Shown: positions 3,379-58,311, numbered from the stretch's first letter. The stretch: DNA of 64,000 bases from Patescibacteria group bacterium (GCA_049274945.1 JBASTP010000002.1:1125-65124), one strand, 5' to 3'. Made by a program: numbers and translations. The notes: a model not told the origin generated them from the sequence alone.

Positions 3379-3804
3379 ATGCCCCGCGACAACCAATGGC
3401 TGGCCGAGCGGCTTGAGACAATCTGGAAAACCCATTTTGCCGACGTGCCGATCCAAAACCAGGTGATCGTGCGGTTTGGCCGGGGGGCGCGCACGCGCCT
3501 GGGCTCCATCAAGTTTGGCCGACGCATCGTTAATCCGCGTACCTACATCACCATCACCGGCTACTTTCGCAGCGAGTTGGTGCCCGAATACGTAGTTGAT
3601 GGCGTGCTGGCCCACGAGCTTACCCACTATGCCCACGGCTTCCACTCGCCCGGGCAGCAGCTCTATTCCCACCCCCACCGCCGCGGAGTGGTTACTAAGG
3701 AGTTGACGAGAAGGGGATTGGGTGATATTGTAAAAAAGCAGAAACGGTGGCTAAAGGCGCACTGGCAAACGTTTATAAGGAAGGAATACAACCACAGATA
3801 TTAA
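3379..3804 (+). CDS. SprT-like zinc metallopeptidase domain protein
   Basis: HExxH (AHELTHYAH) preceded by TRLGSIKFGRRIVNP, matching the SprT N-terminal domain pattern. Confidence 0.6.
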   Translation: MPRDNQWLAERLETIWKTHFADVPIQNQVIVRFGRGARTRLGSIKFGRRIVNPRTYITITGYFRSELVPEYVVDGVLAHELTHYAHGFHSPGQQLYSHPHRRGVVTKELTRRGLGDIVKKQKRWLKAHWQTFIRKEYNHRY

Positions 3805-3876
3805 ACCACTGATTAACACAGATACGTATTACTAGATCGGTGTTTATCCGTGGATCAGATATCAGTGGTTGTAGAT
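3790..3876. repeat. intergenic ~90 bp CAACCAC(T/A)GAT...ATC(T/A)GTGGTTG palindromic repeat, copy 1
   Basis: caaccacagatattaaaccactgatt...gtttatccgtggatcagatatcagtggttg. Confidence 0.8.
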
Positions 3877-3881
3877 ACATT

Positions 3882-4220
3882 ATGTCGGAGTGCATTTTTT
3901 GCAAAATCATTCGCCAAGAGATTCCGGCCAAAATCGTCTGGGAATCAGATGAAATTCTTGCCTTCGACGACGTGAATCCCCAGGCGCCGGTCCACGTGCT
4001 GATTGTGCCAAAGCAGCACACCGAAACGTATACGGTGTTTCTGGGCAAAACTGCGGCCGAGGTGGCAAAAATAAAGGGAGTAGGGGAGTCTGGCTATCGG
4101 CTGATTGTAAACCAAGGCAGCGATGCCGGCCAAGAAATTGCCCACCTCCACATGCATTTACTCGGCGGCAAAAAACTCGGCCCAATGATCGCTCAAAAGC
4201 TTAACGGCTCAAAGACTTAA
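3882..4220 (+). CDS. HIT family (histidine triad) hydrolase
   Basis: HLHMHLLGG histidine triad; start moved to ATG 3882 (MSECIFCKI). Confidence 0.85.
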   Translation: MSECIFCKIIRQEIPAKIVWESDEILAFDDVNPQAPVHVLIVPKQHTETYTVFLGKTAAEVAKIKGVGESGYRLIVNQGSDAGQEIAHLHMHLLGGKKLGPMIAQKLNGSKT

Positions 4221-4231
4221 TGACTTAATAT

Positions 4232-4483
4232 ATGGATCAACCAAAACTACTCGAAAAACAGGATAACACGCGGTTCGGCTACGATTACAAACGCGACGGC
4301 AGATCAAAACGGCCGGAGAGCTTTGAGGTGATGCTGCGCAAGTTCAACCGAGAGATCCAACAGATCGGGCTGCTTACCGAAGTCAAAAAGCGCAAATATT
4401 TTACTAAAGATATGTCGCGGACGATGCGCCGCCAGATTGCCAAGGTTAAATCAGCCCGGCGCAAAGTGAAACGGGGCTACTAG
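4232..4483 (+). CDS. rpsU: 30S ribosomal protein S21
   Basis: EVMLRKFNREIQQIGLLTEVKKRKYFTKDMSRTMRRQIAKVKSARRK, typical S21. Confidence 0.85.
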   Translation: MDQPKLLEKQDNTRFGYDYKRDGRSKRPESFEVMLRKFNREIQQIGLLTEVKKRKYFTKDMSRTMRRQIAKVKSARRKVKRGY

Positions 4484-4486
4484 GAA

Positions 4487-4930
4487 ATGGCGCTCCTAGA
4501 CACAATCGAGCACGATTTCCAGGAAGCGCTCAAAAATAAGGAAGCGGAGCGGCTTTCGGTTCTGCGATTAATTAAAACTGCCCTCACCAACAAAGAAAAA
4601 GAAAAGGGCGAGGCGCCGAGCGACGAAGCAGTCCTCCAAATTCTCAAACAGGAAGCAAAAAAACGCGATGAAGCCGCCAAGCTCTACGATGAGGCGGGTA
4701 AGACCGAGCTCGCACAAAAAGAGCGGCAGGAGCTAGAAATTATCAAAGTGTATGTACCAGCCGAGCTGCCGGACGAAGCAATCATCAAAGCAATCGAAGA
4801 AGTGAAGGCGACCCTTCGACAGAGCTCAGGGCAAGGCGAGTTCGGCCAGGTAATGGGGCAGGTGATGGCGAAATTGAAAGGCCAGGCAGACGGCTCTCGA
4901 GTGGCAGCATTGGTAAAAAAGTCGCTCTAG
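4487..4930 (+). CDS. GatB/YqeY domain protein
   Basis: Size and sequence pattern of YqeY family (LKNKEAERLSVLRLIKTAL...). Confidence 0.8.
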   Translation: MALLDTIEHDFQEALKNKEAERLSVLRLIKTALTNKEKEKGEAPSDEAVLQILKQEAKKRDEAAKLYDEAGKTELAQKERQELEIIKVYVPAELPDEAIIKAIEEVKATLRQSSGQGEFGQVMGQVMAKLKGQADGSRVAALVKKSL

Positions 4931-4936
4931 CGACCT

Positions 4937-5845
4937 ATGTCCAAAACATTAAAATACGCCCTCTGGCTCTTTGCCGTTATCACGGCGATTAATTTTATTG
5001 TGCTCTTACTCTTCAATCTAGTTGGACGAACCTATGCCTTCCCGGCGTGGGGTAGGCTTGCGCTGATTTTTGGCGGGTCGGCGGTTGCCGGGGCGCTCGT
5101 TACGATACTGGTGATTTCAACCGCGCCGGTGCTCCGCGATTTTCTGGCCACCTTCCGGCGGCTACTGCGCCTGGACTCGCTAACCCACCCGCTCCTTGTC
5201 CGACTTTCTCAGGAAGCGCCCTCCACCTACCACCATGCCTTGATGGTCGCCAACTTTGCCCACCGCGCTACGAAAGTGATCGGGGGTGATCCGCTGCTTG
5301 TGAGAATCGGCGCCTACTACCACGACATCGGCAAGCTCGGCCACCCGGCCGCCTACATCGAGAATCAACGGGGTGAAGTTATGAAACGTAACGATACGAA
5401 CCCTAAAAAAATGGCCCGCGTAATCGTTAACCACGTTAAACATGGCATGAAGTTGGCCAAAGAGTACAATTTCCCCGACGAAGTTGCCGCGTTTATTCCC
5501 CAACACCACGGCACCTCGCTGGCGCGCTTTTTCTACCAGAAAGCGCTCGACTCAGGATACAAAGTGCGTACGCAAGATTTCCGATACCCGGGGCCTAAAC
5601 CGCTCTCTAAAGAAGCCGGTATCCTGATGCTGGCCGACGGTGTGGAGGCTAAAATCCGCTCGCTCACCATCCATACTGAAACGGCGATCGAAGCAGCAAT
5701 CGATTCAATTTTTAAAGAAAAACTCGACGACAACCAACTTGAGCTCTCCGGGCTCACCGACACCGATCTCAAAAAAATCCGCCGCTCGTTTATCGAGTCG
5801 GCGAAGATCTTTTCCCACCGCAGAATCAAGTACCCGAAGGGCTAA
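4937..5845 (+). CDS. membrane-anchored HD/HDIG domain phosphohydrolase
   Basis: N-terminal TM helices then HHALMVANFAH...YHDIGK HD motif. Confidence 0.8.
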   Translation: MSKTLKYALWLFAVITAINFIVLLLFNLVGRTYAFPAWGRLALIFGGSAVAGALVTILVISTAPVLRDFLATFRRLLRLDSLTHPLLVRLSQEAPSTYHHALMVANFAHRATKVIGGDPLLVRIGAYYHDIGKLGHPAAYIENQRGEVMKRNDTNPKKMARVIVNHVKHGMKLAKEYNFPDEVAAFIPQHHGTSLARFFYQKALDSGYKVRTQDFRYPGPKPLSKEAGILMLADGVEAKIRSLTIHTETAIEAAIDSIFKEKLDDNQLELSGLTDTDLKKIRRSFIESAKIFSHRRIKYPKG

Positions 5846-5911
5846 ATAACAGGTTTGCATAAAAAAAAGCACGTACCATGCGGTACGTGCTGGCTGCACC
5901 TGTTAAGGTGC

Positions 5912-6757: not shown

Positions 6758-6835
6758 TGTTAACGTTCCTTTTTTTGATTTTCGAGCCATGAAAGTATAC
6801 CATATCCCACCCAAAAAGTCAATACTAGAAAAGGG

Positions 6836-10984: not shown

Positions 10985-11008
10985 TTTTGCCTGCAGCATT
11001 GGCTAACA

Positions 11009-11037
11009 TCTATATTCCACTCCGGGAGTGGAATATA
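11009..11037. repeat. REP-like palindromic hairpin (ctatattccactccgggagtggaatatag) immediately 3' of RAYT gene
   Basis: Perfect 29-bp palindrome. Confidence 0.8.
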
Positions 11038-11039
11038 GA

Positions 11040-11717
11040 TTATTCTTCAAATGTAAGGTGATCGACAGTTTTGATTTTTTTCTGATAATCTGAAAAATCG
11101 CTCACGAACCGCTCATAATCTGAGGGTTTTTTGAACTGTTTAAGGACGATCTCTTTGTCGCAAATGTTCTGATCAGTGCCGCCCAGATATTCACGCAAAG
11201 AAGACCATGGATACTGACGAAGTGCACCCATATCTTTGACTAGGTAAGAATCTAGGGGATTGAGGTGAATATACCGAGAAAGGTGCAGCAGTTGGCTATC
11301 ATTCTCAACCCTCACCGCCTTAAATTGTCCCTGGACAAGCGGGCCAATCCGCTCGTGTTTGGTGTTGAAGTAGCGGCTAAAACTGTCCTGCCAGTGCGCC
11401 ACGAATCGTGATATACCATTGTTCTGTAACTGCTTAAGGAGGAAGTGGAAATGGTTAGGCATTAAACAAAATGCAACAATGCCAATCAACCGGTCATTGG
11501 TAGTGAGGAGATTATCCCAAATTTTTTCTCGTTGCGTTAGTGCGAAATTCTTGAACCGAGAGTATTTAATTGTCTGGTTCGCAAACTGATAGAACTTGAT
11601 TAACTCAATCGCCCGCGCATAATCCCGACTATCCAAAAAAATAGGTTGCTTATTAACACCTCGATTGAAAATATGGTAGTACTGACCCTCGACTAACGGC
11701 GTTTTTCTATAAGGCAC
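11040..11717 (-). CDS. IS200-like / REP-associated tyrosine transposase (RAYT, HuH Y1 family)
   Basis: HIFNRG and CLMPNHFHFLL (HuH) motifs; AT-rich relative to surroundings; flanked by REP hairpins. Confidence 0.85.
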   Translation of the reverse strand: MPYRKTPLVEGQYYHIFNRGVNKQPIFLDSRDYARAIELIKFYQFANQTIKYSRFKNFALTQREKIWDNLLTTNDRLIGIVAFCLMPNHFHFLLKQLQNNGISRFVAHWQDSFSRYFNTKHERIGPLVQGQFKAVRVENDSQLLHLSRYIHLNPLDSYLVKDMGALRQYPWSSLREYLGGTDQNICDKEIVLKQFKKPSDYERFVSDFSDYQKKIKTVDHLTFEE

Positions 11718-11755: not shown

Positions 11756-11776
11756 GGTATTCCACTCCCGGAGTGG
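11756..11776. repeat. REP-like hairpin copy (ggtattccactcccggagtgg), 5' flank of RAYT gene
   Basis: Matches REP core; loop variant ccc-gg. Confidence 0.65.
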
Positions 11777-11970
11777 TCATAGTGGTCACCATCAATTCAA
11801 TGAGCGTAAATCCCTTTATTTTCCTCATCACCATCATCTCCTCGTGCGGGATGCTTATATTCTAACGCGAAACCCAATTGTTATCCACCCCAAGAGGTCA
11901 GGGTTGACTTAGAACTCCTGATGAGGTATATTTTTAGCGAAATCCTGAACAACCGACGAAAGGAACGACC

Positions 11971-17462: not shown

Positions 17463-17480
17463 AAAACTTAATGAAGGACT

Positions 17481-17567
17481 ACAGCCACAGATATTTGATC
17501 CACTGATTGACACTGATACACTCCATGGTATGATCTGTGGTTATCAGTGGATTAACATCAGTGGTTG
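17481..17567. repeat. intergenic palindromic repeat, copy 2
   Basis: agccacagatatttgatccactgattgacactgat...atctgtggttatcagtggattaacatcagtggttg. Confidence 0.8.
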
Positions 17568-17592
17568 TTTGACTACCTTAATTTAGAAAATT

Positions 17593-18033
17593 ATGCGCAA
17601 ATCCCAAAAGATTGTTTTAATTTCGGTTGTGGTGCTCGTGTCGCTGGGCCTCGTGAGCAACTTTTCGGGTTTCGCAAGCAATTCAGGTGCCAGGCGGCAG
17701 CAACCCCGGAACGTCAAACCTAGAAACGATATTCAGCGCCGAGAGCCAACCAGCGCCGATCTTAAAGTTACCCGTGCACCCGATAACAAAACGGTTAACT
17801 ACCAGGGCTTCGAGGGTAAAACCGCGCTCGAGTTGCTCCGGCTCGTTGCCCACGTAGAGACCAAAAACTTCGGCGAGCTGGGCGATATGGTAACGGAAAT
17901 CGACGGTATTACCGCTGACAAAGGCAACTTTTGGGCGCTCTACGTGAACGGCAAGCAATCTGAAGTCGGGGCAAGTAGTTACAAAACCAAGCCAGGGGAG
18001 AGCGTGGAGTGGCGGTATGAGGAAATCAAATGA
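17593..18033 (+). CDS. membrane-anchored DUF4430 domain protein (transcobalamin-like fold; putative B12 binding)
   Basis: N-terminal TM; GNFWALYVNGKQSEVGASSYKTKPGESVEWRY matches DUF4430 pattern. Confidence 0.65.
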   Translation: MRKSQKIVLISVVVLVSLGLVSNFSGFASNSGARRQQPRNVKPRNDIQRREPTSADLKVTRAPDNKTVNYQGFEGKTALELLRLVAHVETKNFGELGDMVTEIDGITADKGNFWALYVNGKQSEVGASSYKTKPGESVEWRYEEIK

Positions 18034-18038
18034 TGACA

Positions 18039-18122
18039 CAACCACTGATATCTGATCCACTGATAACCACAGATTCTTGTGGCCTATCAGTGATTATCTG
18101 TGGCATAAATCTGTGGTTGTAG
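18039..18122. repeat. intergenic palindromic repeat, copy 3
   Basis: caaccactgatatctgatccactgataaccacagat...tgattatctgtggcataaatctgtggttg. Confidence 0.8.
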
Positions 18123-18131
18123 CCCTTCATT

Positions 18132-18635
18132 ATGACGTATCTCCTCATCTTCCTCGGTCTCGCCGCGCGCCTGCTGCCTCACTCCGCCAATTTCACCCCG
18201 GTGGGCGCGATTGGGCTTTTTGGCGGCGCCCAGCTGCCCAAACGGTTGGCGCTTGCCCTGCCGCTCATTGCGGTGTTCATTTCTGATCTTATCATCGGCT
18301 TTTATACCTGGCAGGTGATGCTATCGGTATACCTTGGTTTCCTGGTGTATGGCCTAGCTGGCCTGTGGATCCGGCAGGACTATTCGATCAAGCGCATGGT
18401 GGCTGGCACGCTCGGCGCCTCGGTATTTTTTTTCCTGCTTACCAACGCCGCGGTTTGGGCCTTTACGCCGCTCTACCCCCACACCCTTACTGGCCTTAGC
18501 GAGAGCTACCTGGCCGCGCTGCCATTTTTTCGCAACTCACTGCTGGGTGATTTCTTCTATACCGGAGCATTCTTCGGGGTCTACGAGTTGACACGATTTT
18601 GGGTTGCGGATAGAGTAAGTTTTGCAAGGAGGTGA
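18132..18635 (+). CDS. polytopic membrane protein, putative ECF-transporter S (substrate-capture) component
   Basis: 5-6 TM helices, LLPHSANFTPVGAIGLFGG N-terminal motif common in ECF S components. Confidence 0.5.
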   Translation: MTYLLIFLGLAARLLPHSANFTPVGAIGLFGGAQLPKRLALALPLIAVFISDLIIGFYTWQVMLSVYLGFLVYGLAGLWIRQDYSIKRMVAGTLGASVFFFLLTNAAVWAFTPLYPHTLTGLSESYLAALPFFRNSLLGDFFYTGAFFGVYELTRFWVADRVSFARR

Positions 18636-19900: not shown

Positions 19901-20411
19901 GGGGCGAAATGAGCGGGGATGGTTGAAAAACGGGCCGGGTCGCTGGGAGGAAGAGGCTGGTCAACGCCCAGCGAACCCGGACACCGCTGCCGAAACAGAA
20001 GTGCGGGCGGTGGCACCCGCCGACAGGCTTGCGCCCATCGTAGAGCACTCAAACGAGGAGAGGATTTGTGCGGTGCTTGAAGGCCCCTTTCAGGCCCCAG
20101 GTCAAAAAACATCCTTGCGGACGCACCTCTCGGGGGATTTTTCTTACCCCCTACCTGACTTGATTGCTGGATAGCGGCTCGCGGTCAAATTCCGCAAAGC
20201 CGCCATCCGTGCAGCCGCTCACTACAGATCTCTTCTCATACTAAGTCTGACCGCCCAGACTATAACCCTCCTGCCTTGCGGCAGGGTGCGCAGGCAGCAT
20301 GAGAGGCGTAGATTGAGCGCCACCAATTAGCAGGTTGTTCTCGTTCAAGCAAGAATGATCGTACTACGGCCATTTGACAGCTGTCAAGCCCTTGCACTAC
20401 GCTCAAGGTGT

Positions 20412-21689
20412 ATGAAGTTCCTCCACTTTGCCGACATTCACTTTGGCATGGAAAATTACGGCCGCACCGATAGCGCCAGCGGCTTAAGTTCTCGGCTCAC
20501 TGATTGGCAGCGCTCCTATCAATTTTTGATCGATACCGCCCTGAAAGAACAAGTTGATTTCGTGATTTTTTCCGGCGATGCCTACAAAACTCGCGATCCG
20601 GCGCCCACCTACCAGCGCGCCTTTTGCCAAGGCGTCCGCCAGCTGGCGGACGCAGGGATACCGGTGGTCATGATCACCGGCAACCACGATATTCCGAATG
20701 CCCTGGGCAAAGCCACCAGTCTCGATATTTTCGCCGCGCTCAAGGTGCCCCATGTATTGCTGGCCACTGAACCCATACTCCTGGAACTCGATTTGAGCAA
20801 GCACAACCCGGCCAAGCAGGGGATTGTGCAACTGGCGCTCCTACCCTGGCTCACCAAATCAAAGTTCCTGACCGATGAAAAATTGAAACTGATGACCAGC
20901 GAGCAGTTAAGCGGCTATTTTCAGGCAGCAGTAGGCCGCTACATCAAGGATTTTTCAAGCCAGCTCAACCCGCACCACCCGGCAATTTTGGTGGCCCATG
21001 GTTCGGTGGAGGGCGCGGTATTCGGCTCGGAACGGACTATTATGCTCGGCTCGGATATTGTGATCCCGGCCCAGGCGCTGGCGGAGTCGAAATTTGACTA
21101 CGTGGCGCTCGGCCATATTCACAAACACCAGGTGGTGCTCACGCAGCCACTCACCGTATATGCTGGATCGATCGAACGGATTGATTTTGGCGAAGCGAGC
21201 GACGACAAGGGGTTTGTGATTGGGAACATTAGTAGCACAGTAGCCAGTAGCGCGGTAGCGCAGGGGAAAGTTAGTTGGAAATTTGTGAGAGGGCCGGCAC
21301 GACCCTTCACGGTCGTTCAAGTTAAAAGTGAAAAGTTTACCGTGAAAAATTTGGAGCCTACCGAAGTAATACTCCAAGAAATCAGAAAACACGATCTCAA
21401 AGGGGCGGTGGTAAAGGTGGTGATTGAGTGCGACGAGCAGACGGCGCCCCAGATTCTAGAAAACCCCATTCGCCAGCAACTCGAGGTACAAGGCGTGGAC
21501 TTTATTGCCTCAATCCAAAAAGAGGTGGCGGTGGCTGGACGAACAGAAACCGAACTAGGCTACTCTGATTCGCTCGTGGCTGCCTCGCCGCTGGAGCTCC
21601 TCGAAAAGTTTTTTGAGAGCAAAAACACGCCCAAAAAAGAGGTAGCGCGGTTGCGCCAAATGGCGGAACAACTGCTGGCAGAACGTTAA
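20412..21689 (+). CDS. sbcD: DNA repair exonuclease SbcD (Mre11-like)
   Basis: LHFADIHFG, GDAYK, ITGNHD phosphoesterase motifs; start at MKFLHF. Confidence 0.85.
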   Translation: MKFLHFADIHFGMENYGRTDSASGLSSRLTDWQRSYQFLIDTALKEQVDFVIFSGDAYKTRDPAPTYQRAFCQGVRQLADAGIPVVMITGNHDIPNALGKATSLDIFAALKVPHVLLATEPILLELDLSKHNPAKQGIVQLALLPWLTKSKFLTDEKLKLMTSEQLSGYFQAAVGRYIKDFSSQLNPHHPAILVAHGSVEGAVFGSERTIMLGSDIVIPAQALAESKFDYVALGHIHKHQVVLTQPLTVYAGSIERIDFGEASDDKGFVIGNISSTVASSAVAQGKVSWKFVRGPARPFTVVQVKSEKFTVKNLEPTEVILQEIRKHDLKGAVVKVVIECDEQTAPQILENPIRQQLEVQGVDFIASIQKEVAVAGRTETELGYSDSLVAASPLELLEKFFESKNTPKKEVARLRQMAEQLLAER

Positions 21690-31277: not shown

Positions 31278-31300
31278 GGGTATTCCACTCCCGGAGTGGA
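31278..31300. repeat. REP-like hairpin copy (ggtattccactcccggagtggaa)
   Basis: Same core as 11009..11037. Confidence 0.7.
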
Positions 31301-31351
31301 AAGTGGACAGGAGCTGTTTAAGGAAGAAGGGTAAAAAAAAGACCCACGGAC

Positions 31352-40933: not shown

Positions 40934-40949
40934 ACTATTTCTCCATTAT

Positions 40950-41046
40950 AAGGTAGTAAAACAACCACTGATGTTAATCCACTGATAATCACTGATTGGG
41001 CATACCTGATCTGTGTTTATCTGTGGATCAAATATCTGTGGTTGTA
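40950..41046. repeat. intergenic palindromic repeat, copy 4
   Basis: taaggtagtaaaacaaccactgatgttaatccactgataatcactgatt...atctgtgtttatctgtggatcaaatatctgtggttg. Confidence 0.85.
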
Positions 41047-41067
41047 CTCCTTCATTACTTATTAATT

Positions 41068-41583: not shown

Positions 41584-41768
41584 GATATTAAAAAAATCTG
41601 CGGTCGCAGACTGTGAAAGTAGTCAGTAGTTAGTAGTCAGGAGAAACCCTGACTACTGAACCCTGATTACTTGTGCGCGTACGCGCACCCGTCTCGGTAG
41701 GAATTATGGCCGCCTGTGGCGAGCCGCCTACGGTCTGCGACTAACGCTATTTAACCAACAATTGTGGG

Positions 41769-42482
41769 TTATGTCAAGGCCAGTTTAACCCCCGGGCCCA
41801 TGGTGGATGAGAGCACGGCCCCCGCGAGGCGGGTGCGGGGCAGAACTTTGAGCAGCGCCTCAACGTTGGCTTTGATTTTGGCAGCGTCCCAGGAGACTTT
41901 ACCAACGGCTACGTGGATATTGCCCAGTGAATCGGCGCGGTACTCAATTTTGCCCTTAGTAAACTCCTCGGCAGCCTTCTTGGCATCTTCCACAATAGTG
42001 CCGGCCTTAGGATTGGGCATCAGCCCCTTGGGCCCGAGCACCTTCGCCACTTTAGCTAATTTTGGCATCATCGCTGCCTCGGCTAGCAGGACATCGAACT
42101 CGAGTTTGCCTTTGGCGATCTCCTCGATCAAACTGTCCGAGGCAATGGCAACTTTTGGGAGTTTTGGCGTGCCAGCTGGCAACGTGAGCGTGCCGCGCAG
42201 CGCGTCTTGCCCCTTTTTGCTAAGCGTGGCAATGTGAAATTCAATCGTGCCGTCGAACTTGGTCCATGAAGTCTTTTTTGCGAGCTCGATCGCTTCGTCA
42301 AGATCGTAGCGATTGCGGCGGTCTACTTGGGAGCGTGCTTCAATAAACCGTTTGCCGCGCACGCGGGGCGGGCGGACCCGCTGCACCTTCTTCTTTTCTT
42401 CTTCAACTTTAGCAGGAGCAGCTTCGTTAGTTCCTGGCTGCTCTTGTAAGTCTTGAATTACTTTGGTCTTGGTTTGGCCCAT
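41769..42482 (-). CDS. rplA: 50S ribosomal protein L1 (N-terminal extension)
   Basis: L1 family pattern (KFDGTIEFHIATL...). Confidence 0.92.
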   Translation of the reverse strand: MGQTKTKVIQDLQEQPGTNEAAPAKVEEEKKKVQRVRPPRVRGKRFIEARSQVDRRNRYDLDEAIELAKKTSWTKFDGTIEFHIATLSKKGQDALRGTLTLPAGTPKLPKVAIASDSLIEEIAKGKLEFDVLLAEAAMMPKLAKVAKVLGPKGLMPNPKAGTIVEDAKKAAEEFTKGKIEYRADSLGNIHVAVGKVSWDAAKIKANVEALLKVLPRTRLAGAVLSSTMGPGVKLALT

Positions 42483-42498
42483 GATAATTTTCCTTAAA

Positions 42499-42597
42499 AA
42501 GGTAGGTAAACAACCACTGATGTTAATCCACTGATAATCACTGATTGGGGCATACCTGATCTGTGTTTATCTGTGGATCAAATATCTGTGGTTGTGG
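42499..42597. repeat. intergenic palindromic repeat, copy 5
   Basis: Near-identical to copy 4. Confidence 0.85.
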
Positions 42598-42607
42598 TAC
42601 TTCATGC

Positions 42608-43099: not shown

Positions 43100-43110
43100 C
43101 TTATCTTAAT

Positions 43111-43205
43111 GAAGTTATACAACCACTGATATCTGATCCACTGATAACCACTGATTATACCTAGCGTGATCTGTGTTGATCTGTGGCATAAATCTGTGGT
43201 TGTGG
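43111..43205. repeat. intergenic palindromic repeat, copy 6
   Basis: gaagttatacaaccactgatatctgatccactgataaccactgatt...gatctgtggcataaatctgtggttg. Confidence 0.85.
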
Positions 43206-43219
43206 TCCTACCTTATTTA

Positions 43220-43525: not shown

Positions 43526-43541
43526 AATGTTAACCTCTAAA

Positions 43542-43634
43542 GGAAGTTATACAACCACTGATATTTAATCCACTGATAGACACTGATTTAGGTATCTTAT
43601 CTGTGATTATCTGTGGCATAAATCTGTGGTTGTA
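43542..43634. repeat. intergenic palindromic repeat, copy 7
   Basis: ggaagttatacaaccactgatatttaatccactgatagacactgatt...ttatctgtggcataaatctgtggttg. Confidence 0.85.
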
Positions 43635-43647
43635 GTCCTACCTTATT

Positions 43648-44613
43648 TTATTTAGGTTGCTGTTTTAAATATTCTTGCACAAATTGGTCGAGTCCGCCAC
43701 CCAGCACGCTTGCCGTATCGGCCGTTTCATACCCGGTGCGGTGGTCTTTGACGAGTTGGTACGGCTGCAGCACGTAGCTGCGAATTTGGTTACCCCACTC
43801 GACCGATAATTTCTCGCCGCGCAATTCATCGACTTTTTCTTTGTGCTTTTGCTGCAGTAACGTCGCGAGCTTGGCTTTGATGACTTTCATGGCGATTTCT
43901 CTGTTTTGCGACTGTGATCGCTCGTTCTGGATCGCCACGGTAATGCCGGTTGGCACATGGGTTACCCGAACCGCGGTCTCCAACTTGTTGACATTCTGGC
44001 CGCCGTGGCCGCCCGCGCGGTAGGTATCAATTTTGAGGTCTTGCGCCGGAATATCTGCCACGGTTTGCGATTCAATTTCCGGCACGATTTCAACGAGCGA
44101 AAAACTGGTATGTCGCGCTTTATCGGCGTCGTAGGGCGAGATCCGCACCAGCCGGTGCACGCCAGCTTCGGATTTAAGCAGGCCATAGGCGCTGCCCCCG
44201 CTCACTTTGGCCTGGGCTGATTTTATGCCTGCTTCCTGGCCGGCCGACTCTTCGAGCAATTGGAATGTGAGCCCTTTGCGCTCGCTGTAGCGGCGGTACA
44301 TTTCAAGGAGCATGCTGGCCCAATCTTGGGCTTCGGTGCCGCCGGCGCCGGCGTGGATTCCCAGGTAGGCGGGCTTGTCGTCGTAGGGGCCGGAAAACTG
44401 GGCAAGCTGCGTAAGCGGCGCGAGGTCGGCATCGGTTTGCGCCGCGTCAAATTGCCCAATTAAGCCCTGGAGCTGGCTGTACTGGCTCGAAACCGCCCGC
44501 GCATTTTCTTGATCGCGCCAAAAATCAGGCGCAGCCATCGCGGTTTCAAACTCGCGCACCTGTGCCCGCTTTTCGTCGATTTTGAGCAATGCTCCAATTT
44601 CTACCTTATTCAT
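43648..44613 (-). CDS. prfB: peptide chain release factor 2 (no programmed +1 frameshift apparent)
   Basis: GGQ motif ([11 protein letters not shown]), SPY(F) motif; ATG 44613 (ORF track begins at TTG). Confidence 0.85.
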
Positions 44614-44616
44614 AAT

Positions 44617-44666
44617 GAAGTTAAACAACCACTGATATTAAACCACAGATAACCACTGATAATTAC
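44617..44666. repeat. intergenic palindromic repeat, half copy 8 (left arm only)
   Basis: gaagttaaacaaccactgatattaaaccacagataaccactgataatt. Confidence 0.7.
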
Positions 44667-45044
44667 TTACTTGATGAGGCGTTTGATTTTAATACCATTA
44701 GGAGTAATAAGACAGAGTAGCCCAATACGCAATTTTTCAGCCTTAAGATAACTCAGTATTTGTTGCACATGGCTATTATAAAATTCATTTGCAACTTTTA
44801 ATTCAACGACTACCTTATTATCAACCAAAAAATCGGTGTAATAGCGACCCACTGGCTTTCCGGCAATTTGCACTAATCCATACTGCTCTCGCTTGAAAGG
44901 GATAGCATGATGCTCAAGCTTATAGGCAAATGCGCGTTGATAAAATCGTTCTTGGTAGCCAAACTGTAACTCGTTGAACACTTCGAATATCAAACCAATG
45001 ATGCGTTTTGTTAATTCGCTGTAAGGATACTCCTTCAGGGGCAT
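44667..45044 (-). CDS. GxxExxY family protein
   Basis: Length and pattern (ERFYQRAF...VVELKV) typical of GxxExxY/PD-(D/E)xK-like small proteins. Confidence 0.7.
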   Translation of the reverse strand: MPLKEYPYSELTKRIIGLIFEVFNELQFGYQERFYQRAFAYKLEHHAIPFKREQYGLVQIAGKPVGRYYTDFLVDNKVVVELKVANEFYNSHVQQILSYLKAEKLRIGLLCLITPNGIKIKRLIK

Positions 45045-45087
45045 AACGGCCCTATTTTACCAGAAAACCCTGGCTTATCCCAGGGTT

Positions 45088-45137
45088 TTCTTATCTGTGT
45101 TTATCAGTGGATCAGATATCTGTGGTTGTAGTCCTAC
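45088..45137. repeat. intergenic palindromic repeat, half copy 9 (right arm only)
   Basis: cttatctgtgtttatcagtggatcagatatctgtggttgtagtcctacc. Confidence 0.7.
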
Positions 45138-45147
45138 CTTATTATTG

Positions 45148-45837
45148 TTATCCGAGTAGCGCGTCGAGCAGTTTGCGCTCTTTGCGGTAGCGGCCGTAGG
45201 TCAGAGAAGCGGCGGCGAGCGATGCGGCGGTAAAGCCGTCGAGCGCACCAGCTTTGGGAAGCTGCTTAGGCTTAACGGGATTAGTTTCCTGCTTTGGAGC
45301 TTGAGCAACTACTGTGGCTGGGCTGGTTGAGGATTGGGCTGATCCGCCCGCACCGCCGGCACCACCACCTGCGCCGCCGCCAGATCCGCCTGCGCCACCT
45401 GTAGCAGTTACCGAACCACTACCAGAACTTGAGGATGCGGCTCCGCCTCCTCCACCGGCGCCTCCTGCGGCACCTGAAGAACCGGTAGCAGCAGCGCCAC
45501 CACCGCCTCCGCCACCACCGCCTCCGCCGGCTGCGGTAGCTACTTGATTAGAACCCGAAGAGCTAGACGCGGCACCGCCACCGCCTCCACCTCCACCAGC
45601 GCCGCCACCTGCGGCCGAACCGGTCGAACTAGAGGATGCGGCTCCGCCGCCTCCACCGCCACCGCCGGCACCACCGGCGGCACCTGAAGAACCGGCTGAA
45701 CCGCTCGCACCCGCGGTGCCTGAAGCACCCGGTGCGCCAGCAGCTCCGCCAGCACCGCCCGTAGCTTGCGCTAAGGCAGCGGCAGCTAACATAACAGAGA
45801 GAATGATTGATGAAGAAATGATTAGATACTTTTTCAT
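45148..45837 (-). CDS. Gly/Ala/Ser-rich secreted low-complexity protein with C-terminal LPKAG sortase-like sorting signal
   Basis: Signal peptide, long G/A/S repeats, QLPKAG + hydrophobic stretch + RYRKERK tail; AAGGAG RBS. Confidence 0.6.
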   Translation of the reverse strand: MKKYLIISSSIILSVMLAAAALAQATGGAGGAAGAPGASGTAGASGSAGSSGAAGGAGGGGGGGGAASSSSTGSAAGGGAGGGGGGGGAASSSSGSNQVATAAGGGGGGGGGGGAAATGSSGAAGGAGGGGGAASSSSGSGSVTATGGAGGSGGGAGGGAGGAGGSAQSSTSPATVVAQAPKQETNPVKPKQLPKAGALDGFTAASLAAASLTYGRYRKERKLLDALLG

Positions 45838-45925
45838 GCCTATGACTCCTTTATTAGTAAACACTTGATTATATACCTTTTTTCTATTTTGTCAACCCCT
45901 CCTACCCATAATAAAAGCTCCTTGC

Positions 45926-48743: not shown

Positions 48744-48830
48744 GGACCACTGATCTTGTCCACAGATAAACACTGATCCTATCTGTGATTATCAGTGGTA
48801 TAAATCTGTGGTTGTGGTCCTACCTTATGA
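48744..48830. repeat. intergenic palindromic repeat, copy 10
   Basis: gggaccactgatcttgtccacagataaacactgat...atctgtgattatcagtggtataaatctgtggttg. Confidence 0.8.
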
Positions 48831-51078: not shown

Positions 51079-51095
51079 ATCTAATATTGTAGGCG

Positions 51096-51183
51096 TACAA
51101 CCACTGATGTTAATTCACTGATCATCACTGATTAAGATTTTTATCTGTGTTAATCCGTGGATCAGATATCTGTGGTTGTGGTA
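51096..51183. repeat. intergenic palindromic repeat, copy 12 (overlaps last codons of topA)
   Basis: gtacaaccactgatgttaattcactgatcatcactgatt...tatctgtgttaatccgtggatcagatatctgtggttg. Confidence 0.85.
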
Positions 51184-53230
51184 CTACATTAGCTTGTGCT
51201 GGCGCCTCCCAACTTGAATATTTGCACTCCGGATACCGGCTGCAGCCCCAAAATACCTTACCGCGGCGGCTCCGCCGCTGCAAGATTTCACCCTGCTTGC
51301 AATCCGGGCAGCTAACCCCGGTGGGCGCCACGATCGACTTGGTGTTCTTGCACTCGGGGTAGCCTGAGCAGGCCAGGAACTGGCCGAACCGGCCCAAGCG
51401 CACTACCATATCGCGGCCGCACTTGCTGCATTTTTCGCCACTGGCTTGGTTTTGAATAGACTCGTCTTTGGTCACGCTGGTGTATTTTTCGGCAAGGTTT
51501 TTGGCAAATGGCCCGTAAAATTCAGCCAGCACCTCGTGCCAGTCTTTGGCGCCTTCGGCAATGGCGTCAAGCTTGCCCTCAAGCTCCGCGGTAAAACCAA
51601 TATCAACAATGTCGGAAAAATTAGTTTTGAGCATGTCAGTCACAATTGTGCCAACCTCCTCGGGATAGAACACCCGGTTTTGCAATCGCACGTATCCCCT
51701 ATCCTGGATGGTTGAAATAATCGGCGCGTAGGTGGAGGGTCGGCCAATACCGTGCTCCTCGAGCGCCTTAACGAGGGTGGCTTCGGAGAAGCGGCGGGGC
51801 GGCTGCGTAGCGTGCTGGCCTGGGATTAATTGCTTGAGCTGCGCCGGTTCCCCAGGCTTGGCAGCGAATAGCAGTTTTTCCTCGATTTTAATGGGATACA
51901 CCTTGAGCCAACCGTCAAAGGTAATGGTTTGACCATTGGCGCGGAAGGTGCTGTGGCCCCCTTCGATATCGACATGAGCCACATTGAGTTTGGCTGGCGC
52001 CATTTGGCAGGCCACCATGCGATTCCAAATCAGCTGGTAGAGCTGTTTGTGGTCGGGGGTCCACTTGTCTACAGCGGGTTTTTTGGTTTTGCCTTTGGTC
52101 TTACCCTTGACGGTGGCGCCCAGGATTTTGCGATCAATGTAGGTTGGCCGAATCGCCTCGTGGGCCTCTTGGGCGCCGAGGGCTTTGGTGCGGTACTGGC
52201 GCGGTTTTTCGCTAAGGTATTCTTTGCCCAACTCCTCCTCAATCAGCTTGCGGGTAGTGTTCACCGCCACCCAAGCCAGATTCATGGAGTCGGTGCGCAT
52301 GTAGGTAATGTAGCCGGATTCGTAGAGATCCTGAGCGAGTTTCATGGTCTTTTTTGATGAAAACCCGAGGCGTCGGTTGGCGTCTTGCTGAAGGCTTGAG
52401 GTGGTGAACGGCGGGAACGACCATTTAAGCTCTTCTTGCGAAGAGAAATCCGAAATTCTAAACTCTAAACTCGAAACTGATAAGGTTTTTACTATTTCGT
52501 CGGCCCGGGCTTTGGTGGCAATATCGAGCTTCTCGAGCGGCTTGCCCTCGTACACAATTAAGGTGGCTTGGAGCTCGCTCGAAGCAGCCGCAAAGTCGCC
52601 GAGGATAGTCCAATATTCTTGCGGGATGAACTGTTCGATTTCTCGCTCACGATCAACAATGAGCCGAACCGCCACCGACTGCACCCGGCCGGCCGAGAGT
52701 CCCTTGAACACTTTTTCCCATAGAAATGGAGAGAGTTTGTAGCCGACCAGCCGATCGAGGATCCGGCGGGCCTGCTGGGCATTAACCAGTTTAAGATCAA
52801 GCTCGCGAGGATTTTTGACCGCCTCTTCAATCGCCTGCTGGGTAATTTCGTGGAACGTGATGCGCTTCACCGGTTTAAGGTTTAAAGTATCAGGTCCCGA
52901 CGTAAAGTCGGGATCCCGACCGGAGCGTCGGGATTTAAGGCCAAGGGCCTCGGCGACATGCCAGGCAATGGCCTCGCCTTCGCGGTCGTAGTCTGTGGCA
53001 AGGTAGATTTGCCCCGCCCCCTCCGCCGCTTCCTTAAGCTTGGCGATTGTCTTCACGGCACGGGGTATTACGATGTAATCGGGTTTAAAATCGTGGTCAA
53101 CATCAACGCCAAGCTCCTTTGCCGGCAAATCGCGGACATGACCAAACGAGGCAACGACCTTGTAGTCGCCGCCCAGGAACCGTGCAATTGTTCTACCTTT
53201 GGCAGGTGATTCGACAATAACTAGATTCAT
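51125..53230 (-). CDS. topA: DNA topoisomerase I
   Basis: MNLVIVESPAKGRTI Toprim start, C-terminal C4 zinc ribbons; last ~17 codons (ISDPRINTDKNLNQ) are encoded by the repeat element. Confidence 0.92.
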   Translation of the reverse strand: MNLVIVESPAKGRTIARFLGGDYKVVASFGHVRDLPAKELGVDVDHDFKPDYIVIPRAVKTIAKLKEAAEGAGQIYLATDYDREGEAIAWHVAEALGLKSRRSGRDPDFTSGPDTLNLKPVKRITFHEITQQAIEEAVKNPRELDLKLVNAQQARRILDRLVGYKLSPFLWEKVFKGLSAGRVQSVAVRLIVDREREIEQFIPQEYWTILGDFAAASSELQATLIVYEGKPLEKLDIATKARADEIVKTLSVSSLEFRISDFSSQEELKWSFPPFTTSSLQQDANRRLGFSSKKTMKLAQDLYESGYITYMRTDSMNLAWVAVNTTRKLIEEELGKEYLSEKPRQYRTKALGAQEAHEAIRPTYIDRKILGATVKGKTKGKTKKPAVDKWTPDHKQLYQLIWNRMVACQMAPAKLNVAHVDIEGGHSTFRANGQTITFDGWLKVYPIKIEEKLLFAAKPGEPAQLKQLIPGQHATQPPRRFSEATLVKALEEHGIGRPSTYAPIISTIQDRGYVRLQNRVFYPEEVGTIVTDMLKTNFSDIVDIGFTAELEGKLDAIAEGAKDWHEVLAEFYGPFAKNLAEKYTSVTKDESIQNQASGEKCSKCGRDMVVRLGRFGQFLACSGYPECKNTKSIVAPTGVSCPDCKQGEILQRRSRRGKVFWGCSRYPECKYSSWEAPAQANVVPQPQISDPRINTDKNLNQ

Positions 53231-53993: not shown

Positions 53994-54014
53994 TTGAGTT
54001 ATATAATAAATCCA

Positions 54015-55430: not shown

Positions 55431-55493
55431 GATAAATTGTTCGAGCGGCTGAGCCATAGCTCTATTCTAACAAAAGATCCGCCCCGCGGCGGA

Positions 55494-56771
55494 TCAAGTG
55501 GATTGGGGAGGAGTGTATACCCTACGCGAGAAAGCGATCGGTTTTTCTCCTCCGAAACAGTAGCTACAAATCTTGCTACCAAAGATTTCTCGCAAATCAT
55601 CAAGATTCACTATGGTAAGAGAATCGAGCCCCAGTTTCAAAATTACATCACCGGCAGTTCCATTTTCAATAATGCCCCCGGCCGGCCAGTTGGGAACGCC
55701 GTATTGACAGGGTTTGGTAATCAACGGATTCATCGCTACCCCGTGGATAATTTCAACGCCTCGCTGCCTAAGTCGTCTGGCAATCCCTGCCATAGTCTCT
55801 CCGGAGCGCACTGAGTCATCTACCAGGGCTACTCGCCGAAGACCATTAAGCTGACTTTCGATAAAACTGAACTTCAAGTCAACCGGATCTAAACCAGCCA
55901 CGTGATTGCCAATGCGATTGTGGTAACGGTTATAGTACAAAACCTCCCGATAGGGGATATCCAACGCGGCAGCGAAGGCTTGAGCGCCCACGAGAGCTGC
56001 GCGAGGAATTGGGATAACCGCGTCAGCCGGGTAGCTGAAACGGCTTGCCAGGTGCTCCGCCAACTGCTGCCGCCAATGTTCCACCGAGCGGTTATGCCAA
56101 TCTGAGTTAAACATCATCCGCGATGTCACCTCCGACACACAGGGGCGTTTAGCAAAATATGTAATTCCAGGCTGGACCTCCATACCTTTTGAGCTCAGAC
56201 AGACAATTTGACCCGGTTCAAGATTGCCTTGGACGGTCGCTCCGGCCGCGGCGATGCTGGCTGACTCAGTCGCCACAAACCAACTGCCATCTTCGCTCGC
56301 GCCAATTGACAGCTGCCTAACTCCCCTCGGGTCGCGGCAAACCAGCAGTTGATCGGGGAATCCGACGAGGAGACCATAGGCACCGGGAAAACTTTTCATA
56401 TACTGAACTAAATGAGTTGCGGCGCGGGCTCGGTCACGTAGGAGCTGCCTAGGACTACCTGAAAGCTGTCCCTCATAGATGATCGCCCCATTGGTATTGG
56501 CGTTTAGGATCGGGTTCGTAAATGCCTCGGGAAAATTGCAGCCAACCCTCCCTAACACTACGGTGCCATCGTAATCAGGCCAACTGGTTCCGTGGAATGC
56601 GTCACCCAAGAGGCGTTCTTTCTGTTTTGATTTAACCGGTTGATCGGGAAACAGTGCCGTTATCGAGCAGTTATGCTCGCCCCGATGCTGGACGGTAAAT
56701 AGCCCTTGAAAAACTCGATAGCCGAGATCGGCCCGCCGCTCGAAATTGCAGCCCACCATGATTCCTGCCAT
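55494..56771 (-). CDS. amidophosphoribosyltransferase-like protein (class II GATase fold + PRTase motif) lacking the N-terminal catalytic Cys
   Basis: MAGIMVGCNF where PurF has MCGIVGI; C-terminal VALVDDSVRSGETM PRTase motif; GGAGGTG RBS. Confidence 0.7.
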   Translation of the reverse strand: MAGIMVGCNFERRADLGYRVFQGLFTVQHRGEHNCSITALFPDQPVKSKQKERLLGDAFHGTSWPDYDGTVVLGRVGCNFPEAFTNPILNANTNGAIIYEGQLSGSPRQLLRDRARAATHLVQYMKSFPGAYGLLVGFPDQLLVCRDPRGVRQLSIGASEDGSWFVATESASIAAAGATVQGNLEPGQIVCLSSKGMEVQPGITYFAKRPCVSEVTSRMMFNSDWHNRSVEHWRQQLAEHLASRFSYPADAVIPIPRAALVGAQAFAAALDIPYREVLYYNRYHNRIGNHVAGLDPVDLKFSFIESQLNGLRRVALVDDSVRSGETMAGIARRLRQRGVEIIHGVAMNPLITKPCQYGVPNWPAGGIIENGTAGDVILKLGLDSLTIVNLDDLREIFGSKICSYCFGGEKPIAFSRRVYTPPQST

Positions 56772-56797
56772 TTGTTCAGGTTCACCTCCTGAAGGTC

Positions 56798-56826
56798 TTG
56801 ACATTTACGGTAATTTGTGCTATAAT
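56798..56826 (+). promoter_or_regulatory. perfect sigma70 consensus promoter TTGACA-17-TATAAT
   Basis: cttgacatttacggtaatttgtgctataattacc. Confidence 0.7.
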
Positions 56827-56832
56827 TACCGG

Positions 56833-57058
56833 TTGCCAAGTTGAGATTTCTGTACTGGGGAGGATGCTCGTAGCAAGTTTTCGATGTTTCCCCCTCCTTG
56901 CATCGTAGCTTGTTGCGAGCATTCTCTCCAGTATCCCACTACCCCACCCGCCATATTTAACACATAATGTTGCGGGAATTGGACAAATGGCGCAAGCCTG
57001 GTGGTGGGCTCTACAGGGGGAAAACGAAAAACGATCTGGTGCAAACCGGATCGTTTTT
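56833..57058 (+). ncRNA. candidate small RNA (~220 nt) between consensus promoter and intrinsic terminator; identity unknown
   Basis: No ORF >60 aa on plus strand; terminator hairpin aaaacgatctgg-tgcaaa-ccggatcgtttttcg. Confidence 0.4.
57020..57058. terminator. bidirectional intrinsic terminator hairpin
   Basis: Stem acgatcYgg/ccRgatcgt with U-runs on both strands. Confidence 0.6.
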
Positions 57059-57073
57059 CGTGTTCCTATATTC

Positions 57074-57622
57074 CTATCTGTATATCCTCCCAAAACGATG
57101 TCTGTCCTGTTTAGCTAAATCTTGCTCTTCTTTTGTAAAACCATCATCTATCTGTAACAATACGCTTGAAGGGTTAATTTCTGAAGCTAGCTGTGCATTT
57201 TCCTTATTCAATAAATCTCGAATATTTGTTCCGTGGTCTTTAGTACCTACGCCTTCGGTGATGAAATTGGCGAGTTTAATCTCTCCCATAGGATTTACAA
57301 ACATTAAAAGACGTTCTGCGGTATGGCCGTTTCCCTCCTCTCTTTCATCCCATTTCACATCTACTGCAATAATTCCTGTTCTTTCAAAGTTTTCTTGTAG
57401 TCTCCCAACAGTTTCGCCCTTTTTCACATCTGGGGGTAATTGCATAGAAGCTCTAACGGCCACAGTTCTTAGCTTATCATTTATCACTAGATCAGTTTCA
57501 TATCTATTGACTTGAGGACTGTTCTCATGAATCGCTTCAACTTCTTTGACAATTGATTTAAGATGCCCATAAACAGCTGCACTTCTTTCTGCAGTTAATT
57601 CTTTTTCGGGTTCATGAACCAT
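57074..57622 (-). CDS. hypothetical protein (182 aa) in AT-rich island
   Basis: Strong SD GGAGGAAAT-ATG; local GC ~38% vs ~55% elsewhere. Confidence 0.6.
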   Translation of the reverse strand: MVHEPEKELTAERSAAVYGHLKSIVKEVEAIHENSPQVNRYETDLVINDKLRTVAVRASMQLPPDVKKGETVGRLQENFERTGIIAVDVKWDEREEGNGHTAERLLMFVNPMGEIKLANFITEGVGTKDHGTNIRDLLNKENAQLASEINPSSVLLQIDDGFTKEEQDLAKQDRHRFGRIYR

Positions 57623-57720
57623 ATTTCCTCCTGGTTCAATAGTATTAGTTCACAGTATATATGTCAAGAGTAGTAGTAAATTAAAAGGCCTCGGAGTATA
57701 TGCACCCTCGGTATTGAATT

Positions 57721-57767
57721 TTATCTGTGTTTATCTGTGGATAAAATCTGTGGTTGTAGTGACTACC
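57721..57767. repeat. intergenic palindromic repeat, half copy 13 (right arm)
   Basis: ttatctgtgtttatctgtggataaaatctgtggttgtagtgactacc. Confidence 0.7.
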
Positions 57768-57768
57768 T

Positions 57769-58194
57769 TTATTTGGTCACTTCGATGCCCATGCTTCGCG
57801 CCGTTCCTTCGATAATCTTGACTGCCTGGCCAATATCGCGTGCGTTCAGATCGGGCAGTTTGATCCTGGCAATGTCGGCAACTTGAGCCCCACTGACCTT
57901 GCCCACTTTCTCGCGCTTAGGGGTGCCGGAGCCTTTCTCCAGGCCGGCCGCCTTCTTAAGCAAGAACGAGGCAGGCGGCGTTTTGATAATAAAACTGAAG
58001 GTGCGGTCCTCGTAGATCGTCAGGAGTACCGGCAGGACAATGCCTGGCTGATCTTTAGTTTGCTCGTTGAACTTCGAGACGAACTCGCCAATATTGATAC
58101 CTTGGGGACCGAGGGCGGTTCCGACGGGAGGTGCAGGAGTGGCTTGGCCGCCCGGTACCTGGAGCTTAACCGTTGTTTTAATCTTCTTGGCCAT
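57769..58194 (-). CDS. rplK: 50S ribosomal protein L11
   Basis: L11 family pattern. Confidence 0.93.
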
Positions 58195-58210
58195 GCGACA
58201 GTTAGTTTAA

Positions 58211-58311
58211 TAAGGTAGTAAAACAGCCACTGATATTAATCCACTGATAATCACTGATTAAGATTTTTATCTGTGGTAATCTGTGGATCAGATATCTGTG
58301 GTTGTGATACT
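58211..58311. repeat. intergenic palindromic repeat, copy 14
   Basis: taaggtagtaaaacagccactgatattaatccactgataatcactgatt...tatctgtggtaatctgtggatcagatatctgtggttg. Confidence 0.85.

Follow-up and report, generated by a model that had tools for sequence, protein, structure and literature searches.

Phased-heptad inverted repeats in a Patescibacteria genome as candidate derivatives of a GxxExxY nuclease cassette

The 23S rRNA genes of Leptospira, Coxiella and Salmonella sporadically carry intervening sequences (IVS), which are bounded by a 28-bp terminal stem, optionally hold a small open reading frame (ORF) and are RNase III substrates; that they are mobile has been suspected for a long time, with no mechanism known (PMC4990558). 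Among described systems, this design appears closest to that of a high-copy family of near-palindromic intergenic repeats found in a 64-kb stretch of DNA from a Patescibacteria group bacterium (JBASTP010000002.1:1125-65124; hereafter the window, to which all copy counts refer). In both, terminal inverted repeats form a stem, the loop is either short or occupied by one small ORF, and occurrence is sporadic; the parallel extends to a Nealsonbacteria locus (L133) in which an ORF of the IVS protein family PF05635 lies between arms of the same design beside a GxxExxY nuclease cassette. The window copies differ from IVS in lying between protein-coding genes and not in 23S helices 9, 25 or 45 (an Rfam scan found no rRNA in the window), and in having arms that are phased heptad arrays with fixed mismatches. 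The cargo differs as well, being a PD-(D/E)XK nuclease (PF13366) where that of IVS is a four-helix-bundle protein (PF05635). This nuclease gene, which lies within one copy, is the key to the repeat family, and had been overlooked in an earlier note on this DNA. We hold with moderate confidence that the copies are gene-less derivatives, of the kind known as miniature inverted-repeat transposable elements (MITEs), of a small cassette in which inverted arms surround a promoter-less GxxExxY (PD-(D/E)XK) nuclease gene.

Several other known systems resemble the family in part. With MITEs such as Correia/CREE, ERIC and RUP, the repeats share short length, lack of coding content, inverted ends, a variable centre, an intergenic and co-transcribed position, presence or absence between relatives, and an apparent origin by internal deletion from a longer gene-carrying element. 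They differ from MITEs in that the gene of the parent cassette encodes a GxxExxY nuclease and not a known transposase, in showing no identifiable target-site duplication, in carrying three phased sub-repeats per end, and in having no sequence similarity to any named family. Repetitive extragenic palindromic (REP) sequences and REPINs are also high-copy intergenic palindromes of ~100 nt with GTAG near the foot of the stem, as at many of the element ends here, and this genome has a gene resembling the REP-associated tyrosine transposase (RAYT); here, however, the gene associated with the family lies inside the element and encodes a PD-(D/E)XK nuclease, whereas the RAYT-like gene has another palindrome. 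Free-standing homing endonuclease genes include the seg and mob genes of T4-like phages, and I-Ssp6803I is a homing endonuclease of the PD-(D/E)XK type. Such genes, like the cassette, are small promoter-less nuclease genes set between conserved operon genes and absent in relatives; unlike them, the cassettes occur at many unrelated sites, with inverted arms of their own and numerous gene-less copies. TIGR-Tas arrays were considered and set aside as unrelated, being tandem guide arrays. The searchable literature on the motif, on GxxExxY/PF13366/PF05635 and on intergenic palindromes of the candidate phyla radiation (CPR) yielded no description, and the cassette family is apparently undescribed.

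Architecture, number and placement of the repeats

Each element is a near-palindrome of ~110 bp (units of 105-119 bp) with inverted arms of ~45 bp each. An arm consists of an outer foot (TAAGGTAG) and three heptads of the form CCACWGAT/CACWGAT, spaced ~14 and ~10 bp apart, which bears out the earlier description of arms built from reiterated 7-8 nt units; a full element thus has six heptads (3+3), and the palindrome continues outward as TAAGGTAG...CTACCTTA or CTTCATTA. Being short (<300 bp), non-coding and bounded by terminal inverted repeats, the elements have the form of MITEs. Each terminal 11-mer (CAACCACTGAT and ATCTGTGGTTG) has 26 matches at <=1 mismatch against 0.8 expected, a number reached by none of 100 shuffled sequences. 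A nhmmer profile built from ten aligned full copies, with which the window was searched with filters off, returned exactly the 14 sites that had been listed in the earlier note and none besides: ten full copies, one with a degenerate outer left unit, and three single arms (Table 1). Beyond the repetitive nature of the sequence, nothing suggests that the pattern arose by chance in low-complexity DNA or during assembly; the excess of 11-mer matches and the recovery of the same copies from independent assemblies make such an origin exceedingly improbable. The junctions are the same in L006 (Logan) and in L130/L131 (ENA, JGI), and the repeats are therefore not a product of assembly. Contig L006 terminates at a copy; repeats of this kind break short-read assemblies.

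Copies 4 and 5 are near-identical, as had been noticed, and have both loop and flanks in common, while copies 12 and 14 share a loop. The flipped orientation reported for copies 1 and 2 was seen in the sequence, and orientation follows the direction of transcription in 13/14 copies, with copy 3 as the exception. Between the upstream stop codon and the element core lie 5-23 nt, and between the core and the following start codon 12-35 nt; the extended unit occupies essentially the entire intergenic space. The upstream stop codon lies inside the element in two cases. Translation indicates that copy 12 provides about the last 21 codons plus the stop of topA (tail ...ANVVPQPQISDPRINTDKNLNQ, then stop), so the proposed donation of the topA end stands at a length greater than the ~17 codons first given; the ORF at copy 1 likewise ends within the element. 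A shared promoter, terminator or operator cassette, another of the roles first suggested, drew no support: a search for sigma-70 promoters and terminators gave 2-3 weak matches (-35/-10, 16-18 bp) and no T-run after the stems. Canonical TTGACA-N17-TATAAT promoters are present elsewhere in the window, and copy 13 is followed by a hairpin and a canonical promoter for the next gene.

Table 1. Positions and setting of the features discussed, with GxxExxY loci from other sequences in the last rows
Feature	Coordinates	Strand	Context	Evidence or protein match
Copy 1, full, 3+3 heptads	3775-3879	-	ORF 3379-3804 / HIT gene junction; ORF stop inside	nhmmer E=1e-25
Copy 2, full	17469-17580	-	nrdJ / DUF4430 gene junction	nhmmer E=2e-30; Pfam of neighbours
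Copy 3, full, sole one reversed relative to transcription	18029-18133	+	DUF4430 / DUF6580 junction	E=8e-27
Copy 4, full	40948-41057	+	rplJ / rplL junction; L127 gap 16 bp	nhmmer E=2e-32
Copy 5, full	42497-42606	+	pth / rplA junction	nhmmer E=7e-32
Copy 6, full	43107-43216	+	ybaB / pth junction; decayed 3-unit array in L127	nhmmer E=1e-28
Copy 7, full	43539-43646	+	prfB / ybaB junction; L127 gap 8 bp	nhmmer E=4e-28
Cargo-bearing cassette	44613-45142	-	before prfB	both arms match profile, E=5e-14 and 7e-10
Cassette arm 1	45087-45142
Cassette terminator-like hairpin	45062-45091
Cargo gene, 125-aa GxxExxY / PDDEXK_3 nuclease	44667-45044	-		PF13366 E=1e-26; TIGR04256 98.6 bits
Cassette arm 2	44613-44666
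Copy 10, outer left unit degenerate, loop 3 nt	48746-48828	+	downstream of cysS	nhmmer E=3e-19
Copy 11, full, longest loop	50331-50449	+	recR / 74-aa ORF; L127 gap 15 bp	E=2e-26
Copy 12, full	51085-51191	+	topA / recR junction; L127 gap 31 bp	nhmmer E=2e-29
Copy 13, solo arm	57717-57768	+	immediately past rplK stop codon	nhmmer E=4e-8
Copy 14, full	58210-58317	+	nusG / rplK junction	nhmmer E=5e-30; Pfam of neighbours
RAYT-like Y1 (IS200-type) transposase, 225 aa	11040-11717	-
TTCCACTCCSGGAGTGGAA GC palindromes	1000-1032, 11008-11040, 11760-11778, 31283-31301
SbcD-like gene	20355-21689	+		Metallophos
SbcC-like gene	22958-25030	+		AAA_23, Rad50 zinc hook
TrwB/TraG-like ATPases, two	34040-36655, 37266-39731	-	adjoin rplL	DUF8128
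Second kind of heptad hairpin	41617-41672		rplA-rplJ spacer
rplA	41769-42482
238-aa Gly/Ala/Ser protein	45148-45864	-
rplK	57769-58194
L130/L131, same cassette			orthologous site	94% to window protein
L132, CACAGAT arms			before frr; separate gene-less copy downstream	62%
L181, CACWGAT arms				55% to window protein
L178, CACWGAT arms			after transketolase gene	46%
L133 (Nealsonbacteria), CACTAAT/CACGAAT arms			within type IV secretion-like operon	50%
L179/L180, CACTGAA arms, 9-bp spacing			after DNA methyltransferase gene	38%
L182, GC 0.60, CACWGAT arms			before ligA	58% to P0139
L183, GC 0.61, CGCGGAT arms			after rplI	50% to P0139
L137, viral contig, GC 0.61, CCACGGAT arm upstream only				42%

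By its Pth protein, the closest named relative of this genome is Candidatus Berkelbacteria (68% identity). A 40-kb contig from a syntenic relative (L127, Pth 67% identical) has the gene order of the window (dprA-topA-recR-small ORF-cysS-...-prfB-ybaB-pth-...-rplA-rplJ-rplL). The earlier note had proposed checking whether orthologous junctions lack the element, and in L127 four of these are gaps of 8-31 bp where the window has elements of 105-119 bp (Table 1), with the stop codon nearly abutting the Shine-Dalgarno sequence (e.g., TAAGGAGAAAAATG). With the element profile, L128 (Berkelbacteria) and L129 gave no match and L127 a single weak one, at ybaB-pth, where a three-unit array persists in decayed form. 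The element is an insertion without counterpart in relatives, and its presence or absence at orthologous sites (L127, L128, L129) is a further property of MITEs. The option of a MITE-like mobile element, one of those offered at the outset, is accordingly the one that found support, from the relative's junctions without the element, from shared loops and flanks, and from a gene-carrying version with the same arms.

The tightness of the relatives' junctions also bears on the possibility that the 3+3 heptads are host regulatory arrays, serving as operators through which a host protein of the DnaA-like, MraZ-like or nucleoid type coordinates translation and replication genes. Such a role would suit the perfect conservation of heptads set about one helical turn apart, the location of copies beside ribosomal and replication genes, and the outer unit of the wider family (TTARCCACA), which is one mismatch off a DnaA box. 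The orthologous junctions are, however, too tight to hold such sites; loops and flanks shared between copies are expected of duplication and not of convergent site evolution; and in other phyla these same arms enclose, at unrelated sites, a nuclease gene that looks selfish. We therefore give a regulatory origin little credence. A DnaA-box cluster in particular was rejected, as only five element 9-mers lie within 1 mismatch of TTATCCACA, with <=1 per copy.

The nuclease-bearing cassette and other GxxExxY loci

The earlier note had recorded half copies at 44617, 45088 and 57721. Single arms are indeed present at all three places, but the first two are not separate half copies: they are the two arms of one element around a 378-bp gene. 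In transcript order, the cassette consists of arm 1, a terminator-like hairpin, the ORF and arm 2 (Table 1). PF13366, the Pfam family to which the product belongs, has been described as a PD-(D/E)XK family of unknown function that has undergone multiple transfers (PMC3424549). In an alignment of eleven homologues, residues D71, E81 and K83 and the G-E-Y motif are invariant. An AlphaFold2 model of the protein (pLDDT 92.6) has the PD-(D/E)XK fold, and the nearest solved folds, at TM ~0.45-0.55, are those of Cas4, lambda exonuclease, tRNA-splicing endonuclease, the homing endonuclease I-Bth0305I and the Holliday-junction resolvase Hjc. The invariant D/E/K triad, the confident model and the PD-(D/E)XK fold matches together make the nuclease look intact, and on this modelling the cargo is predicted to be a minimal PD-(D/E)XK nuclease core to which nothing more specific can be assigned. 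The protein had no match in a sequence search of the PDB, in PHROGs or in PADLOC. An 8-mer (TATGCCCC) found both in the loops of copies 4 and 5 and in the start region of the cargo gene was considered as a remnant and discarded as not significant, with an estimated ~0.1 expected by chance.

The cassette was compared with every other bacterial GxxExxY locus obtainable, giving nine independent bacterial loci with the window included. Heptad arms of the 3+3 type stand on both sides of the gene in 8/9 of these, and the ninth (L137) has an upstream arm only; with the window excluded, 7/8 are bracketed on both sides, in lineages of 37-61% GC. In every locus the cargo gene is promoter-less and co-oriented with the host operon, and the ORF is found between conserved genes, preceding prfB in the window, frr in L132 and ligA in L182 and following rplI in L183. 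In L127 there is no GxxExxY gene ahead of prfB. Two tandem short copies in L179 retain an arm and ~16 nt of the 5' end of the ORF, and because of this remnant they are taken to be deletion derivatives of the gene-bearing form. In L133 the PF05635 ORF (2101-2478) is bracketed by inverted ATTGTNA arrays and lies within the same type IV secretion-like operon, one gene away from a GxxExxY cassette that has different arms.

A profile search of 1.84 billion representatives gave 25,733 GxxExxY clusters at 50% identity. Many of the N- and C-terminal extensions of these proteins are translated heptad arrays, such as TTDFERTDHTD, ENTEYTE, TQKTQR and ...SAPSV. Many top representatives (P0132, P0134, P0137 and others) are 260-275 aa in length with two full domains; these are genuine tandem fusions, or else pairs of neighbouring cassettes with read-through across the arms.

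Arm conservation, folding and a RAYT-like transposase

Conservation was assessed at 36 heptad-core positions in 14 copies, 11 from the window and 3 from other metagenomes. The heptad cores were identical in 3276/3276 pairwise comparisons, whereas spacers and loops were 52% identical, and spacer lengths differ even between the two arms of one copy. RNAalifold found 23 consensus pairs, all invariant, with no compensatory change and with unpaired spacers. Because the cores are invariant while the spacers drift and no compensatory changes occur, the heptads are better read as sequence-specific recognition sites set at about one helical turn than as a selected RNA helix; judged by this pattern of variation, the arms fit sites for a protein.

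These results weigh on a further possibility, that the repeats act at the RNA level as inter-cistronic processing or stabilising hairpins, for example as RNase III targets like those of phage T7 or the 23S IVS. Both strands do fold into long interrupted hairpins (-27 to -48 kcal/mol, z -2.6 to -7.8), the intra-operon position and orientation bias would suit such a role, and there is a likeness to the IVS stems cut by RNase III (PMC4990558). Yet compensatory substitutions are missing, the two arms have spacers of unequal length and unlike sequence, all heptad pairs retain a mismatch at their centre, single-arm arrays are common, and neither the window nor 16 related loci gave an Rfam match at gathering score, a check proposed in the earlier note. 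A function of this type, which would leave the pattern of conservation unaccounted for, is in our judgement rather unlikely as the basis of the family, and it would in any case be compatible, as a side effect, with derivation from a nuclease cassette.

At the heptad centres, the bases that face each other across the hairpin were T.T or A.A in 32/36 pairs, with one Watson-Crick pair and three other mismatches; an A on one side is accompanied by an A on the partner (pooled Fisher p=1.3e-4, uncorrected for copy relatedness). The rule is also true in L178 and is broken in L132 and L183, and therefore does not hold across the class. A double constraint is possible, with A or T needed for the duplex and a lack of pairing for the fold. 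The window also encodes SbcD-like and SbcC-like proteins, a hairpin-cleaving nuclease pair (Table 1). SbcCD attacks long perfect palindromes, and might conceivably be a reason to keep the arm mismatches.

The RAYT-like gene in the window offers a different route to mobility, by which the palindromes would be REP doublets recognised as single-stranded hairpins by its HUH enzyme. Its 225-aa product matches Y1_Tnp (Pfam, 31 bits) and the NCBIfam REP-associated tyrosine transposase (51.7 bits) and contains an HUH-like motif (HFH) as well as YIHLNP; in size and hairpin form the elements are REPIN-like, and many element ends have GTAG 5-6 nt outside the stem. The NCBIfam score does not, however, reach the curated cut-off (80), the element ends have GAAG in ~40% of cases against GTAG in ~60%, and the single arms are direct heptad arrays, not palindromes. 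Moreover, it is a different short palindrome, TTCCACTCCSGGAGTGGAA, present four times in the window, that flanks the gene on both sides, no CACWGAT copy lies within 5 kb of the gene, and a second Y1 gene, in L178, has its own palindrome at its flanks in place of heptad arms. We regard movement of the heptad repeats by the RAYT-like enzyme as improbable; the gene and TTCCACTCCSGGAGTGGAA have the look of an independent REP/RAYT pair of the classical type, here in a CPR genome.

Related arrays, a possible mechanism and its meaning

In viral contigs, a scan found three phased CACWGAT units at 120 loci at least, where ~1-2 would be expected by chance assuming ~1e11 bases. Among the matches listed, ~100 are arrays of the form TTAR-CCACAGAT-nnn-CACAGAT-nnn-CACAGAT once coding tandem repeats are dropped, and about a third of those listed have an inverted partner arm within 160 nt; their GC content ranges from 0.29 to 0.68. 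The arrays lie among terminase, portal and capsid genes and thus belong to genuine phage genomes. The neighbours of the more than 100 viral arrays are ordinary phage structural genes, with no recurrent DNA-binding protein or Y1 gene, and the orientation of the arrays showed no clear bias against crude ORF calls. Near a terminase gene, nine viral contigs (L016, L019, L030, L041, L042, L050, L088, L106 and L107) carry a feature in which tandem CCACTGATTAG is followed by TCAGTGG, a run of 20-60 T and repeated GTCTCA; packaging and a replication origin are possibilities for it. Outside viral contigs, a metagenomic sequence of GC 0.66 (L002, 2470-3010) has four tandem 3+3 hairpins of the CACAGAT type with ~50-nt loops and a ~140-bp period. 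An arm scan of a genome collection (species representatives) gave one match only, in a recombinase gene of a CPR metagenome-assembled genome (ADurb.Bin212): a three-unit CACAGAT array (L001, 7033-7066) within a XerC-like recombinase coding sequence, read as ...NTTTDILHRSTQMG... This may be an in-frame insertion of an arm in a protein.

Other features of the window concern its gene neighbourhood. The nusG-rplK-rplA-rplJ-rplL cluster is split by ~15 kb, with genes comF-like, dprA, CYTH, topA, recR, cysS, prfB, ybaB and pth lying between rplK and rplA. Most of this gene order is also present in L127, and the separation is therefore ancestral and not caused by the repeats. Two large TrwB/TraG-like ATPases adjoin rplL, and the same pair lies beside rplL in L127 and L128, a conserved and unusual neighbourhood. 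Runs of Gly/Ala/Ser make up nearly the whole of a predicted secreted protein of 238 aa, which has an LPxAG-like sorting motif at its C terminus and gave no match in a Pfam search. The rplA-rplJ spacer contains a second kind of heptad hairpin, in which AAGTAGTCAGTAGTTAGTAGTCAGG is paired with CCTGACTACTGAACCCTGATTACTT, and in L128 there are more such arrays between genes, with different short units (AAAGTGA, AATGCAAAAT). Hairpins of phased short repeats may be a general feature of these genomes.

From the arrangement of genes and arms, we infer that the window family may be mobilised by the GxxExxY nuclease. Cassettes and their derivatives insert in the short gap that separates a stop codon from the following ribosome-binding site (RBS); they lie within operons, co-oriented with transcription, and would therefore be read through. 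The heptads would be bound by a protein acting as a multimer, most likely the nuclease that the cassette itself encodes, which would cut at or between the arms. Copying of the cassette, akin to homing or transposition, could then follow, either to new stop/RBS junctions or to gene-less copies, the arms of the gene-less copies supplying ~45 bp of homology per side; the gene-less copies would in turn spread or persist through nuclease provided in trans. In the transcript, the arms would form a 35-bp hairpin with fixed 1x1 mismatches, which may keep the insertion harmless to the operon.

A number of observations weigh against this explanation. The link between GxxExxY proteins and the heptads is one of sequence context, and 125 aa is small for a protein that would combine sequence-specific binding with catalysis. 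The window has one gene-bearing copy for 12 gene-less ones. No target-site duplication is identifiable: the element ends are palindromic (TAAGGTAG/CTACCTTA), and a TTA/TAA duplication, which fits some copies only, is indistinguishable from the inverted repeat. The decayed array in L127 occupies the same ybaB-pth junction as copy 6, implying either long persistence or repeated insertion there. Finally, the more than 100 CACAGAT-triplet arrays of genuine phage contigs have no GxxExxY gene nearby, and viral GxxExxY homologues are mostly of the giant-virus type, without arms.

More tentatively, and as a possibility to which we give somewhat less than even weight, GxxExxY proteins may be the mobility nucleases of hairpin-armed mini-cassettes that occur across phyla, with the heptads as their recognition sites and the gene-less hairpins as both their offspring and their landing pads; the scheme perhaps extends to the four-helix-bundle ORFs of the 23S IVS. 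If this is true, operon-embedded cassettes would be tied to the 23S rRNA IVS, and these 30-year-old puzzles of origin and mobility would gain a mechanism. The large family annotated as "GxxExxY protein" would acquire a testable role as mobility or homing nucleases, and the gene-less hairpins strewn through this genome, through other metagenomic bacteria and through many phage contigs would have a common origin in such cassettes. The spurious peptide tails on real genes, such as ISDPRINTD, TTDFERTDHTD and ...SAPSV, would likewise be explained. For the biology of the CPR, the finding would mean that selfish DNA colonises even these tightly packed, reduced genomes, settling between stop codon and RBS in essential operons.

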